64,000 nt of DNA, taken from the NCBI GenBank assembly GCA_963771355.1, contig CAVYTA010000005.1:160001-224000 (forward strand), written 5' to 3'. The position numbers and the translations under genes are program-made. This document shows positions 1-56,691 of this stretch, piece by piece. Source of the stretch: an uncultured Candidatus Rokubacteria bacterium (GTDB taxonomy: Bacteria; Methylomirabilota; Methylomirabilia; Rokubacteriales; CSP1-6). Position 1 is the first letter of the stretch. Every line of letters begins with the position of its first letter. A model generated the notes under the pieces. It saw only the letters and a list, made by a program, of their open reading frames with translations, had not been told where the DNA came from and searched no databases.

Positions 1-1758
1 CATCGTCCGGGTGACGCGGTGGAGCGCGCGGCTTTCGTGGTGCTCGTGGACTGCGCGGCCGGGAAGACCTACGAGGCGACCGTCTCCCTGACCCAGGGTC
101 GCGTGGTGGGCTGGGAGCATGTCCCCGGCGTCCAGCCGGCCATCGTGCTCGACGAGGTGCTGGCCTGCGAGGCGGCCGTGCGCGAGGATCCGCGCTGGCA
201 GGAGGCCATGCGGAAGCGCGGGGTCACCGACCTCAGCCTGACCATGGTGGATCCGTGGTCGGCGGGCAACTTCGGGCTCCCGGGCGAAGAGGGCCGCCGG
301 CTCGTCCGGACGCTGACGTGGGTGCGCCGCCACGCGGCGGACAATGGCTATGCGCGGCCCGTGGCCAATCTCCTCGCCGTCGTCGATCTGAACGAGATGA
401 AGGTGCTCCGTGTCGAGGACGGCGGCGTCGTCCCATTGCCGCCGGAAGACGCCAACTACACGGCCGAGTCGGCCGGGGTGCGCTCGGGACTCAAGCCGAT
501 CGAGATCCGCCAGCCCGAGGGCCCGAGCTTCGAGCTTCGCGGCCACGAGCTCGCCTGGCAGAAGTGGCGGATGCGGATCGGGTTCACGCCCCGCGAAGGC
601 CTGGTGATCCATACCGTGACCTACGACGACGGGGGACGGGAGCGCCCGGTCCTCTATCGCGCCTCCGTGGCCGACATGGTGGTGCCTTACGGCGATCCGC
701 GGCCGACCTATTTCCACCGCAATGCGTTCGACGTGGGGGAGTACGGGATCGGCTCGCTCGCCAATGCGCTCGAGAACGGCTGTGATTGCCTGGGCGAGAT
801 CCGCTACCTCGACGCGGTGGTCAACGACGGCCAGGGCCACGCGCTGCCGCTGCCGAACGCCATCTGCATCCACGAGGAAGACGCGGGCATCCTCTGGAAG
901 CACTTCGACATGCGCCTGCGGACCACCGAGGTGCGCCGCTCGCGACGGCTCGTCGTCTCGTCCATCTCCACCGTGGGGAACTACGAGTACGGCTTCTACT
1001 GGTACTTCTATCAGGACGGCACCATCCAGCTCGAGGTGAAGCTCACCGGCGTCATCTCGAACGGCGCCGAGCGGCCGGGGGACAAGCCCCTCTGGGGCGA
1101 GATGGTGGCGCCGGGAGTCTACGGACCCATCCACCAGCACTTCTTCTGCGCGCGCGTCGACATGATGGTGGACGGGCTCGAGAACTCCGTGTACGAGGTC
1201 AATACGGTCGCCGATCCCCCGGGCCCCGACAACCCGCACCACAATGCCTTCCACGCGGAGGCGACCCTGCTGCGCTCCGAGGCAACCGCCTCGCGAGTGA
1301 TCAACCCGCTCGCCGGACGCTTCTGGAAGATCGCCAATCCGTCGGTCCGAAATCGGATGGGCGAGCCGGTGGCCTACAAGCTCATGCCCGGGGACAACGT
1401 GCTGCCCTTCGCGGGACCGGAGGCCTCCATCACCAAGCGCGCGGGCTTCATGTCCCGCCATCTCTGGGTCACGCGCCACGACTCACGAGAGCGCTACGCC
1501 GCGGGGGAGTATCCGAATCAGCACGCGGGGGGCGCCGGTCTGCCCAGCTACGTGAAGGACGACGCGCCCATCGAGAACACCGACCTCGTCGTCTGGTACA
1601 CCTTCGGCTCGCATCACGTGGTCCGGCCCGAAGACTGGCCGGTGATGCCGGTGACCACGATCGGCTTCATGCTCAAGCCCAGCGGCTTCTTCGACCGGAA
1701 CCCCGCGCTGGACGTCCCGCGCCCGACGGCGCATGGCGAGTGCTGCCACCCGGGCTAG
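1..1758 (+). CDS. Copper-containing primary amine oxidase (TPQ enzyme), 5' truncated by window edge
   Basis: TPQ consensus TVGNYEY, catalytic Asp region [15 protein letters not shown], Cu-ligand HQH and [12 protein letters not shown] motifs; frame open from base 1. Confidence 0.95.
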
Positions 1759-1945
1759 GGAGGTCTACCGGCGGGCGGCCGGGCATAGTTCACCCAGCTC
1801 GGCGGTGATCGCCGCCGCGTACCCACGCGAGATTGCCGAGCAAGCCGCCGGTCCCGGCTGCCCGCAAGGTGGGCAACCGGCGCGGGAAGAATCCTCGTGG
1901 ACATCGCGCCATCTCAAGGACAGAAGGCCAAGGAGGACTTCGCGC

Positions 1946-2696
1946 ATGGGCAAGCTCGAGGGGAAAGTCGCCATCGTCACCGGGGCATCCAAGGGGATCG
2001 GAGCCTCCATCGCCAAGCATCTGGCTGAATCCGGCGCGGCGGTGGTCGTGAACTACGCGTCCAGCAAGGAAGGCGCCGATCGTGTGGTCGGCGAGATCGA
2101 GGGCAAGGGAGGCCGGGCGGTGGCGGTCCAGGCCGATATGGCCAAGGCCGAGCGACGTCGAGCGGCTCTTCTCGGACGCGAAGACGGCATTCGGCCGGCT
2201 CGACATCGTGGTCAACAACGCCGGAGTCTACGAGTTCATGCCGCTCGAGCAGATCACCGAGACACACTTTCACCGGCAATTCGACGTCAATGTCCTGGGA
2301 CTGATCCTGGCCGCGAAGGAAGCGGTGAAGCACTTCGGCGCCGAGGGCGGGAGCATCGTCAATATCAGCTCGGTGGCCAGCACCGCCGCGCCGCCCAATG
2401 CCTCGGTGTACAGCGCGACCAAGGCCGCCGTCGACGCGGTGACGCGCTCCCTGTCCAAGGAGCTCGGCCCTCGCCGTATCCGGGTCAATGCCATCAATCC
2501 CGGCCCGGTCGAGACGGAAGGCTTCAAGACCGCGGGTCTCGAGGAAAGCGACTTCCGCAAGCAGGTCGAGGCCCAGACTCCGCTCGGCCGCATCGGCCAG
2601 CCGCAGGATATCGCGCCCGCCGCGGTATTCCTGGCCTCGGAAGATGCGGCATTCATCACCGGCGAAACCCTCCATATCTCGGGCGGCATGCGTTGA
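1946..2696 (+). CDS. SDR family oxidoreductase (FabG/glucose 1-dehydrogenase-like); +1 frameshift near 2146-2150
   Basis: [17 protein letters not shown] in one frame, then VVNNAG and YSATK in the next; an extra base in gccaaggccgagc, probably a sequencing error. Confidence 0.9.
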
Positions 2697-2740
2697 CGCG
2701 AGCGGCGGGGCGTGCCTGAATACGAGGCACGCCCGCCGCC

Positions 2741-3607
2741 ATGCTGCTCCTGGATCCCGCCTCCGATCTGCACACGACGCTCGCCGGCCTCGCCGAGCGG
2801 GCGCGGGCCGTCTTCGTCGCCGGGCTCCCGGGGACCGGCAAGAGCCTCCTCATCCACCAGCTCGTCCAGCTCGCGCATCGGCAGGGGCGCACGGTCTCGC
2901 TCCTGCAGTGGGACGTGGCACGGCCGGCGGTCGAGAATCACGCGACGGCCCGCGCGTACCCGGCGCATCGCGGGGTGACCCACGGCGTCGTGCGCGTGGC
3001 AGTGGGGCGATGGGCGCGCGTCGCGGTCGCGCAATGGGCCGCGCGCGCCGCGGACTCCACCGCCCTGCTCGTCGGCGAGGCGCCGCTGGTGGGCCACCGG
3101 CTGGTCGAGCTGGTGCGCCCACTGGACGACGCCGCCGAACCGGTGCTGAGCGACCCGCGCACGCGCTTCGTCGTCCCGGTGCCGTCCCCCGAGCTGCGCC
3201 ACCACCTCGAGGCCGAGCGTGCCCGCCGCGCGGCCCAGCCGCTGCATCCCCGCGAGCGCGAGGACGCGCCGCCCGAGGTGCTCCGTGACCTCTGGCGCCA
3301 GCTCGCCGGCGTCGCGGCGGTGCTCGGCCTGGCGGGCGCCCCGGTCGCCGGGGCCCCGGCGCCCTACGACCCCGCGCTGTATTCCGCGGTGTACGAGCAC
3401 GTGCTCCGCCGCCGCCACGTCGACGTCTTGCGGCTCGACGCCATCCTGCCCGCGGCGGCCATGTCTCCATATGATCTCGGTATCGCCGTGGATGACCTGC
3501 GCCCCCGCGCGGACGAGGCCGAGCTGCTGCTCGCGGGAGCGGGCCGGGACTGGGCGGACCCGGCGGCCCTCGAGCAGGCCCTGGACCGCTGGTACGTCAC
3601 GCCGTGA
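2741..3607 (+). CDS. Hypothetical P-loop NTPase-like protein
   Basis: Walker A-like GLPGTGKS near N-terminus; typical GC-rich codon usage. Confidence 0.7.
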   Translation: MLLLDPASDLHTTLAGLAERARAVFVAGLPGTGKSLLIHQLVQLAHRQGRTVSLLQWDVARPAVENHATARAYPAHRGVTHGVVRVAVGRWARVAVAQWAARAADSTALLVGEAPLVGHRLVELVRPLDDAAEPVLSDPRTRFVVPVPSPELRHHLEAERARRAAQPLHPREREDAPPEVLRDLWRQLAGVAAVLGLAGAPVAGAPAPYDPALYSAVYEHVLRRRHVDVLRLDAILPAAAMSPYDLGIAVDDLRPRADEAELLLAGAGRDWADPAALEQALDRWYVTP

Positions 3608-3679
3608 CCCTCGTCCGGCCTCGGGAGCGTATTCTGTAGCGGCGGCACAGGCGATCACGCGACACGGGGAGGAGAGGCC

Positions 3680-5323
3680 ATGGCAGAGACGATCGCGGTC
3701 CTGAACCCGATGGGCTTCGCGCCGAGAGTGACACGCCGGGCGCTGGCTCCGCGCCTGCCCACGCTCGAGGGCAAGACGGTGTACCTGGTCGACTGCCGCT
3801 TCGACGACTCGGACGTATTCCTCGAGCAGATGCGGGCGTGGTTCGCCGAGCATCTGCCCGGCGTCACCCCGGTGGTGAAGCGGATCTCGAGCGTGTATCT
3901 CAACGACGACCCCGCCACCTGGGAAGAGATCCGGTCCCGAGGGCACGCCGCCATCGTGGGGGTCGGCCACTGAAGCACCTGCGCGCCGGCGGTCGCCGCG
4001 CACGCGATGACGCTCGAGGCGAGGTATGGAGTGCCCACGGTCGCGCTCCACACCGACAAGTTCGACCGGGTGGTCCGGTCGGTGGCGACGGTGAACGGCA
4101 TGCCCGGGCTCCGGCAGGTCTTCGTCCCGCAACCGATCATGGGCAAGACGGCCCGCGAGCTGCGCGGGTACGTCGACGGGAAAGATCAGATCACCGGGCG
4201 GCCCGTGATGCAGGAGGTGGTGGAGGGGCTCACACGGCCGTTCGAGGAGGGTGAAGAAGGTCCTTCCGAGTTCGACCGGACCAGCGCCCGCCTCATCGGC
4301 CCCGACACCGCCGAGCGCCTCGAGCGGCTGTTCCTGGACAGCCACTGGACCGACGGGCTCCCCATCGTGCTCCCCACCGAGGAGCGCGTGGCCGCCATGC
4401 TGGCCGGCACGCGACGCAAGGCCGACGAGGTGGTCGGGCGCATGCGCTCCACGCACTTCCGCGAGTACTGGGAGTACTCCGTCGAGAAGGTGGCCGTGAA
4501 CGCCGTGATGGCGGGGGCGCGGCCCGAGTACTTTCCCGTGATCCTGGCTCTCGCCGCCACCGGGGTGACGGCGCGGAGCAGCAGCTCGAGCGCCATGGCC
4601 TCCATGGCCGTCGTCAATGGCCCCATCCGGCACGAGATCGCGATGAACGCGGGCACCGGCGCGATGGGACCTTACAGCCACGCCAACGCCACCATCGGCC
4701 GGGCCTACGGCCTCCTCTCGCAGAATGGGCAGGGCGGCTCCGTGCCCGGGCTCAGCTACATGGGGAATCAGGGCAACAGCTACGCGTACAACAGCGTGAC
4801 CTTCGCCGAGAACGAGGAGCGTAGCCCCTGGGAGCCCTTCCATGTGCAGCAGGGATTCCCCGGCTCGGAGAGCGCGGTGAGCGTCTTCTCGGGCTGCCGG
4901 TCCACCGCGTTCGCGCTCGGGCTCCGCGAGACGCACTGGCGCGAGCACGTGCGCAACCTCCTGCGGGGCATGGACCCGAGCATCCCGCCCACCCTCTTGC
5001 TGGACCCCATCGCCGCGCGGCAGTTCGTGGATCGGGGCGGCTTCGTGAAGAAGGCCGATCTCATCGACTGGCTGTACGACACCGCCTGGATGCCGGCGCG
5101 CGAGTACTGGGACTATCAGCTCGTCCAGAACTACATCTTCCCCCGCGCCACCTTCGGGGAGGAGCCGTGGGCATCCAAGCTTCGCGCCGCGCCCGACGCG
5201 CTCATCCCCATGTTCCGCCGAGAAGACATTCACGCGGTGGTGGTGGGCGGCGAGACGAACGGCTACTGGCGCATCATGGGCTGCACCTATCAGAAGAGCG
5301 TGTCGGTGGACGCGTGGCGGTAG
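3680..5323 (+). CDS. Probable selenoprotein: UGSC-family N-terminal domain (UxxC, U at codon 98) fused to a conserved uncharacterised C-terminal domain; 547 aa with readthrough
   Basis: ORFs 3680..3973 and 4007..5323 share a frame and are separated only by TGA 3971-3973; readthrough gives GVGH-U-STC-APAV; hairpin directly downstream; GGAGGAG RBS at 3680, none before 4007. Confidence 0.85.
3980..4002 (+). promoter_or_regulatory. Putative bacterial SECIS-like stem-loop
   Basis: TGCGCG (3980-3985) pairs with CGCGCA (3997-4002) around a G-containing 11-nt apical region, after a 6-nt spacer from the in-frame TGA. Confidence 0.55.
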
Positions 5324-5342
5324 CCGGGCCGCGCCCGCGCCG

Positions 5343-6293
5343 CTAGGTGTGAACTGCCATGAGATTGTTCGGGGCCGCCAGGAAGCGGATGGGCGGACGA
5401 CCGTGAAGCGCGCTATGGCCGCGCTCCCAATTGTAGTAGTAGAGCCACGCGGGCAGCGCGTCGGTGCGAGCGCGAGAACTGGGATACGCGCGGCGATACG
5501 CCCACTCGCGCAGCAGGGTTTGGATGAAGCGTTCGGCTTTGCCGTTGGTGCGCGGGGTGTAGGGGCGCGTGCGGCAGATGCCGCAGGCCGGTGCTCCGAC
5601 ACAGGCGGGCGAACCGCTCGGCGACGGTACCCGGAGCCGTTGTCACTCAGCACCCGACGCACGCGGATGCCGTGCCGCCGGAACCAGGCCAGCGCGCGCC
5701 ACAGAAACCGGGTAGTGGTGGCGCCGCCCTCGTCGCCCAGCACCTCCACGTAGGCCAGCCGGGAGGCATCGTCAATGGCGACGTGCACGAACTCCCAGCC
5801 GATGCCGCGCACCCGGCTCCGCGCGATCCCGGTGATGCGGTGGCCCACCCGCCCGATCCGCCCGAGCTTCTTGACGTCGAGATGCACCAAGTCCCCCGGG
5901 CCGCGCCCACTGATAGCGCTGGACGGGGACCGGCGGCTCGAGCGCGGGCAACCGCGCCAGGCCCTGGCGCCGCACGATCCGCGCGACCGTCGAGGCACTG
6001 AGCTGCAGGGCCTGGGCAATCTGCGCCCCGGTCCAGCGTTGCCGGCGCAGGTGCGCCACCCAGCTCGTCAGCAGCGGCGGGGTCACGATCGGACTCCGCC
6101 GCGGGCGACACGAGCGATCGGCCAACCCCGCGGTCGCCTCCCGCGCATACCGCGCCACCCACTTGCGCACCGTCCGTTCACTCACGCCCACCGCGGCGGC
6201 TACGGCCGCGGGCCGTTCGCGCTGGGTCAGCACGCGCGCCACGATCTGGCCTCGACTCCGGGGCGTCGTCCGGGCATTCTTATGGATGTTCAT
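5343..6293 (-). pseudogene. IS481-family transposase with three net +1 frameshifts (~5895, ~5622, ~5572); real decay or read errors
   Basis: MNIHKNARTTP start, HTH, PGDLVHLDVKKLGRI, VLSDNGSGY and TPRTNGKAERF (DDE) spread over successive frames. Confidence 0.85.
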
Positions 6294-6381
6294 CCGGGCC
6301 TCCTCCTCTGCGGGGATGGTCGACTCGCAACCACCAGCTTCGCAGGGGAGACCCGGATGGACAATCTCCTGACAGTTCACA
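5348..6381 (-). mobile_element. IS481-family insertion sequence (1034 bp)
   Basis: 23-bp imperfect TIRs (TGTGAACTGCCATGAGATTGTTC vs TGTGAACTGTCAGGAGATTGTCC), TGT...ACA ends, 6-bp direct repeat GCTAGG at 5342-5347 and 6382-6387. Confidence 0.95.
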
Positions 6382-6382
6382 G

Positions 6383-7096
6383 CTAGGCGCCGGCGAAGGC
6401 GATGCGGGCGAACCGGGTCTCGGCGGTGGATCGGGTGTCGTTCGTGTCAATGGACAGGGCGATGGCCTGAGGATCGTCCGGTGCCTCGCCGAACACCCGG
6501 CGATGATCATCGACGACGTTGCGCCGCTCCCGGAGCCACTGACCGAGGCCATCCTCGCCCCGCCGCACGACGATGAAGGTCACCGTGGACGTCTTGCGGC
6601 TCTTCACGATGGTCCCGATCGGCAGGCTCGCGTCCCACACGTAGCCGATGAGACGAGAGCGCAGCAGGGCAGGGAAGCGCGGCCAGATCACGAAGAGATG
6701 GCCGGTGGTATCGGAAGTGGCGCGCTCCTGCAGGTCGGCGCCTCGGGGTAGGGCCAGCACCTTCCACTCCCACTCGAGCAGTGGAGTGGCCGCGAGCGCG
6801 ACGTGCACTTCCTTGGCGATGGTCGAATGGTCGGCGGCGCTCTTCAGATCGAGGGCGCGCCGGCCGCCATCCTCCACCACGGTGAAGTCATACGCCGGCT
6901 GACCACCCGGCGTCTCGTACTTCTGCCAGCCCGGGGGCACCCCGCGGGAGCCCAGCGGTACGTCGCGCCAGTCTTCGACCACCTGCCCGGACTTCACCGG
7001 CGCGGGAGCGCTCCACGCGGGCGCCCGCCTTCCGCTCAGCAGCCCGGCCACGGCGGTGAGGACAAGGGCCCGTCGAGTCAGCCTGGTGTCCCTCAT
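6383..7096 (-). CDS. DUF3047-like exported protein
   Basis: Twin-arginine-like TRRALV signal; TPLLEWEWKV, YVW, IDTNDT motifs. Confidence 0.75.
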   Translation of the reverse strand: MRDTRLTRRALVLTAVAGLLSGRRAPAWSAPAPVKSGQVVEDWRDVPLGSRGVPPGWQKYETPGGQPAYDFTVVEDGGRRALDLKSAADHSTIAKEVHVALAATPLLEWEWKVLALPRGADLQERATSDTTGHLFVIWPRFPALLRSRLIGYVWDASLPIGTIVKSRKTSTVTFIVVRRGEDGLGQWLRERRNVVDDHRRVFGEAPDDPQAIALSIDTNDTRSTAETRFARIAFAGA

Positions 7097-55547: not shown

Positions 55548-55707
55548 GGCTCCTCCATGTACGGTTGTACGGGATTCACTAGAGATTGAAGTTCATCCTA
55601 GACCATAGCGGACACGGATGAGAGGAGGATGAAGCGAGCGTGAGAAGTTTCTTAGCCGGCGGCCCCGCGCCGAGGGGCCTCGCTTGACAATGGGGGGCCG
55701 GCGGCCG

Positions 55708-56679
<972 letters not shown>

Positions 56680-56691
<12 letters not shown>

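Follow-up and report, generated by a model that had tools for sequence, protein, structure and literature searches.

UGSC is a selenoprotein family that has been described since 2007-2008 without a known function (PMC1976440, PMC2398784), that was among the most abundant selenoprotein families of the Global Ocean Sampling survey, and that papers call thioredoxin-like. The passages dealing with UGSC in PMC1976440, PMC9312934 and PMC7539508 add no function, and a 2026 review (PMC13188914) still has it as uncharacterised. A fusion of UGSC to a second domain, Unknown_1, was described by Zhang and Gladyshev in 2008 (PMC2398784, Fig. S1A). In proline reductase the substrate is bound by PrdA, and its alpha carbon is attacked by the selenocysteine (Sec) of PrdB; the Cys variant is inactive (PMC11229817). 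Here we analyzed a gene at 3680-5323 (+) in a window of 64,000 nucleotides (positions 160,001 to 224,000 of contig CAVYTA010000005.1, assembly GCA_963771355.1) from an uncultured Candidatus Rokubacteria bacterium with a genome of 5.5 Mb, 99.8% complete and about 70% G+C. From its sequence, the internal UGA of this gene very likely encodes Sec98 in one 547-residue protein, whose N-terminal domain is very probably related, at a distance, to the part of glycine/proline reductase protein B that carries Sec.

The gene forms a single frame from ATG 3680 to TAG 5323, with TGA 3971-3973 as the sole interruption. Reading this triplet as Sec gives one recoded codon, U98, in a H-U-S-T-C context at residues 97-101, and a protein of 60.4 kDa (computed with Cys at 98), which AlphaFold models as a whole two-domain chain with a predicted local distance difference test (pLDDT) score of 96.8 and a predicted template modelling (pTM) score of 0.94. 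An earlier note, made from the nucleotide letters alone, had pointed out that the separately called open reading frames (ORFs) of 97 aa (3680-3973) and 438 aa (4007-5323) share one frame split only by this TGA, and that a ribosome-binding site precedes ATG 3680 and not ATG 4007. Coordinates and translation agree with both statements, as GGAGGAG stands 5 nt 5' of ATG 3680 and neither GGAG nor AGGA occurs in the 22 nt preceding ATG 4007. This internal ATG (Met110) is likely not a genuine start. Among the best 120 database hits, 102 are pieces of 434-443 aa, with Met110 as the commonest printed start.

Two observations could speak for TGA 3971 being a true stop or a sequencing error, leaving two proteins or a pseudogene, namely that databases mostly list the 438-aa piece (the 102 hits above) and that a frameshifted gene for a short-chain dehydrogenase/reductase (SDR) lies close by in the window. 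This is extremely improbable in view of the related loci. Over 135 of them, a set that includes the locus itself and some duplicates, the codon at U98 is TGA in 86, TGC or TGT in 44 and unaligned in five, so that TGA is exchanged only with Cys codons; all 18 full-length homologs (546-557 aa) within the best 120 protein hits have Cys there, and the sequence 5' of the TGA is conserved (45-94% identity). The whole gene is present in 11 of 40 relatives' genomes, with exactly one TGA in each, and contigs of other sequencing runs, used here in place of raw reads, span the codon with no listed difference (X1, 3600-3991; X8, 3600-5327; RNA run X18, 3931-4128). The TGA is therefore not a base-call error. 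The selenoprotein predicted in the earlier note thus stands: Cys or TGA occupies the same column in homologs, the contigs of other runs show no TGC or TGT at this codon, homologs did not end at the TGA without conservation beyond it, and the genome encodes selA, selB and tRNA-Sec (selC) on contig C7 and selD on contig C4, every family scoring above its cut-off. In a FastTree tree (109 rows) with the root placed at three distant Sec rows, the Sec/Cys label changes twice and Cys rows are nested among Sec rows, which suggests that Sec is ancestral and that the Cys forms came later.

A hairpin of the selenocysteine insertion sequence (SECIS) type, with a GGUC loop 17 nt 3' of the UGA and an energy of -15.6 kcal/mol, satisfies the bacterial (bSECIS) model as quoted in PMC13188914 (a loop of 3-9 nt that starts with G and lies 16-37 nt 3' of the UGA, stem of at least 4 bp, energy of -7.5 or lower). 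A point that weighs against the hairpin is that its energy is no better than that of shuffles (z 0.57, -0.34 and 1.21). The codons are more telling: among 41 distinct HUSTC loci entropy is 0.2 or lower in only 5 of 144 four-fold columns, which are codons 102-106, inside the hairpin. These codons are fixed in 70-72 of 72 distinct TGA loci but vary among 36 Cys loci, synonymous sites 3983-3997 being frozen in the former and free in the latter; the Cys loci belong mostly to one clade, so that the two groups are not independent samples. Because the constraint tracks TGA and not Cys, the alignments give clear indication of selection on the hairpin, and the same pattern argues against a stop codon or sequencing error.

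The Pfam model PF24696 matches across the TGA at 91.5 bits, over a gathering cut-off of 25, which agrees with the assignment to UGSC that the earlier note had made. As elsewhere in this family of uncharacterised function, U-x-x-C occupies the same place in the match. The NCBIfam model NF041046 scores 60.7, below its cut-off of 125, and the literal U-G-S-C motif is replaced here by U-S-T-C, the variant noted before, while the five paralogs in the genome have U-G-S-C. These five genes also stand alone, unlike the present one. The fusion to an uncharacterised domain that the earlier note described is real but not hidden from the literature, since it is the UGSC/Unknown_1 fusion printed in 2008: the domain order is the same, UGSC then Unknown_1 in one frame, and the Unknown_1 segment shown in that figure corresponds by eye to residues about 272-324. 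The Unknown_1 Cys highlighted in PMC2398784 is Ala280 in this protein, and the examples given there are marine reads and aquatic bacteria, whereas the nearest named relatives of this gene are Rokubacteria (closest 95% identical). The gene is the USTC, Ala280 (Cys-less) form of a fusion in print since 2008. Homologs number in the thousands (7,863 of 8,000 candidates scored), and the outcome at gene level is an annotation fix in a known family, the UGA having truncated the majority of its top hits.

For comparison with glycine and proline reductase we used 25 GrdB- and PrdB-like proteins from 25 of 30 loci (L148-L177). By hhalign, the profile of the fused N-terminal domain aligned with GrdB-like proteins at a probability of 88.7% (E 2.6e-6, 101 columns) and with PrdB-like proteins at 83.3%, and that of the stand-alone UGSC proteins at 92.5% and 37.1%, respectively; U was in register in these alignments, and 11 controls per query reached at most 5.9%. 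A hidden Markov model (HMM) built only from the 25 GrdB/PrdB-like proteins was run over the 20,749 windows of the genome that centre on a TGA; TGA 3971 came out on top (E 0.009), and five of the six UGSC genes were in the top six. In reverse, a UGSC HMM found GrdB-like proteins at E 4e-6, with 24 of the 25 in a list of 76. The homology is distant yet reciprocal at the level of sequence, and covers the surroundings of Sec, the following helix and an E-x-x-G-x-P strand; the N-terminal part of GrdB/PrdB is unmatched.

Several results weigh against this relationship. The E-values of the forward scan range from 0.009 to 0.25, with one unrelated window fourth and the sixth UGSC gene not among the 12 rows listed; the reverse search also reported a chance SDR end at E 0.0037; and PF07355, the GrdB/PrdB family model, has no match in this genome (E up to 1), although it is positive in 38 of the 61 genomes covered from its order. 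Those 38 carry GrdB-like or PrdB-like selenoprotein genes (L148-L177), which were not found in this one. The link between UGSC and GrdB/PrdB was not found stated in the literature passages that cover both; it may be stated, or the USTC form listed, in papers under subscription, in database comments or in supplements such as the sequence files of PMC2398784. The new element here is the tested link, which gives a specific, assayable mechanism with about an even chance of being right.

The UGSC domain is modelled as a flavodoxin-like alpha/beta fold, its best fold matches being flavodoxin- or receiver-like, and the U-x-x-C motif sits after the third core strand, as opposed to the first in thioredoxins. 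Against a thin thioredoxin profile (four rows) hhalign gave 0.25-0.4%, and a thioredoxin-type family outside those listed may still be a match. The CxxC-type redox motif of the earlier note is present as U-x-x-C, but looks closer to that of GrdB/PrdB than to thioredoxin CxxC. The literature on UGSC assumes a general thiol-disulfide or peroxide reductase, in which U-x-x-C would shuttle electrons in a thioredoxin-like manner, the acceptor being a peroxide, a disulfide in a protein or a Cys in the partner domain. TrxB-like neighbours at 28 of the 135 loci and the retention of the partner-domain Cys in all seven other C-terminal-domain copies of the genome are consistent with such an activity, which we nevertheless regard as rather unlikely. 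The C-terminal domain is modelled confidently and has no Pfam family and no close solved structure. In 74 of 80 USTC rows Ala occupies the family Cys position (Ala280), and His388 is the only further Cys or His conserved at 75% or more. The lack of any other such residue, together with structural matches at noise level (Foldseek root-mean-square deviation 15-17) and the nucleophilic use of Sec in the proteins nearest to the Sec region by sequence, makes it quite improbable that Sec98 and Cys101 are ligands of a metal, iron-sulfur cluster or metalloid in a lyase, hydratase or detoxifying enzyme. Four loops of the C-terminal domain (297-310, 359-370, 401-412 and 520-537) vary strongly between paralogs, as might be expected of substrate-specific loops.

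The genome has six PF24696 matches, with one TGA each, and eight copies of the C-terminal domain. The gene at 3680-5323 is the sole fusion; the five stand-alone UGSC genes adjoin stand-alone genes for the C-terminal domain, and two further genes for this domain have no PF24696 match alongside. As six of the eight copies are either joined to a UGSC gene with a TGA or next to one, and the two-domain model is confident, the two domains appear to form one unit. PF24696 is found in 126 of 151 genomes of the phylum; each of the 95 other genomes from the family of this bacterium has it, at 2-13 copies. A protein that binds or senses redox state but does not turn over a substrate, with the C-terminal domain binding a ligand and U-x-x-C reporting the redox state, would accommodate the two copies that lack a UGSC match beside them, the resemblance of the N-terminal fold to receiver domains and the existence of some distant full-length members without both motif Cys; it is very unlikely given that Sec and hairpin are retained across several phyla, that the protein has no output domain and that the commonest neighbour is a reductase gene. 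The distant members in question (P0176, P0183, P0227 and P0257) have a UGSC-like domain, and P0176 and P0183 start with hydrophobic, signal-like segments. Proteins P0175 and P0200 (709-741 aa) have two tandem Unknown_1 domains without Pfam match, and P0194 and P0211 are also tandem, judged by two matched stretches. A further in-frame TGA, in a T-U-P-H-C context at C5:965963 (+), likely belongs to a thioredoxin-fold selenoprotein.

The reductase gene mentioned above is TrxB-like with an intact CxxC and, where present, is adjacent and on the same strand in 25 of the 28 loci; many loci are short contigs, so that this count is a lower bound. In three tested cases the gene product scored below the TIGR01292 cut-off (254-324 vs. 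343). The present genome has an unlinked member of this subfamily, its second thioredoxin-reductase-like gene (C4:203437-204342, -), next to a peroxiredoxin-like ORF. For the pair of a relative (locus L075) the predicted complex scored 0.60, against 0.00 for the best of three controls, with at least 62% of contacts agreeing between runs and a partner pLDDT of at least 84; in calibration, 18 of 157 solved complexes passed at a score of 0.60 or lower, as did both passing mismatches (2 of 215). The model thus lends weak support to a complex of the L075 UGSC fusion with the TrxB-like protein.

By analogy, the chances are about balanced that the 547-aa protein works like GrdB/PrdB, as a reductase recycled by thiols, whose selenolate would attack a small organic molecule that the C-terminal domain is predicted to bind. 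Insertion of Sec at UGA 3971 would depend on recognition of the hairpin by SelB, a step for which the sequence argues very strongly, and the N-terminal domain is in all likelihood distantly related to the Sec module of GrdB/PrdB, as the sequence tests indicate. Following the reductases, the target of Sec98 might be an activated carbon or heteroatom in a C-N, C-S or N/S-oxide bond, and Cys101 might resolve the adduct to a selenenyl-sulfide, which NADPH and a thioredoxin-reductase-like flavoprotein, such as that encoded beside the gene in other lineages, or the general thioredoxin system could re-reduce. The substrate probably differs between paralogs.

A number of observations count against this mechanism. 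Cys often takes the place of Sec in nature (44 of 135 loci), whereas the Cys variant of PrdB is inactive, and some distant full-length members lack both motif Cys. In the Rokubacteria clade to which this gene belongs, no row out of 43 has the TrxB-like gene alongside, and in the phylum that gene was found in 15 of 151 genomes (only 15 candidates scored per genome) vs. 126 with PF24696, three of the 15 genomes having no PF24696 match. Neighbours across the 135 loci yield no consistent clue to a substrate. The C-terminal domain does not resemble the GrdE-like or other proteins encoded next to grdB genes, so that its sequence does not explain how a substrate would be activated.

Upstream in the window, genes for a copper amine oxidase and a P-loop protein lie on the same strand (1-3607, +), the P-loop cluster recurring in 5 of 135 loci. 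The SDR gene (1946-2696) is frameshifted near 2146, by either a real lesion or an assembly error, and intact in relative L025 (249 aa, 96-97% identical). An IS481-family element begins 24 nt past the stop; its ends read TGT...ACA, and a target repeat of 6 bp flanks it (5342-5347 and 6382-6387). Its transposase matches lie in different frames. The element is absent from relatives L025, L027 and L072, and contigs of runs X2 and X5 skip it.

Table 1 Features of the selenoprotein locus and related elements in the window
Feature	Position	Strand	Basis
Ribosome-binding site GGAGGAG	3668..3674	+	Sequence
Whole gene, 547 aa, Sec at 98	3680..5323	+	Translation; 18 full-length Cys homologs of 546-557 aa; AlphaFold model
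UGSC domain, residues 7-164	3698..4171	+	PF24696, 91.5 bits; fold matches (VIA rows) over residues 28-192; hhalign and HMM tests
U98-S-T-C101 motif, TGA at 3971-3973	3971..3982	+	Codon counts in 135 loci
SECIS-type hairpin, loop GGUC at 3991-3994	3980..4006	+	Folding energy; frozen synonymous sites; bSECIS model
Internal ATG (Met110), start for gene callers, likely not the real start	4007..4009	+	Database hit lengths
C-terminal Unknown_1 domain, about residues 201-547; Ala280 codon at 4517-4519	4280..5320	+	
IS481-family element	5348..6381	-	Transposase matches, target repeat, relatives
Stand-alone paralog of the C-terminal domain (Unknown_1)	55684..56691	+	Family Cys kept; no PF24696 match beside it

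With the Sec module placed beside GrdB/PrdB, and one-chain Cys homologs next to a candidate reductase, the function of UGSC becomes a target for direct assay and structure determination. It is possible, if somewhat doubtful, that UGSC and Unknown_1 together make up a large overlooked class of glycine/proline-reductase-like selenoenzymes, in which a GrdB/PrdB-type Sec module is joined by a substrate-binding domain of undescribed fold that replaces the pyruvoyl subunit, and which is fed by NADPH via its own thioredoxin-reductase-like enzyme. The 2-13 copies in each Rokubacteria genome might then serve to break C-N, C-S or oxide bonds in varied organic compounds of the soil.
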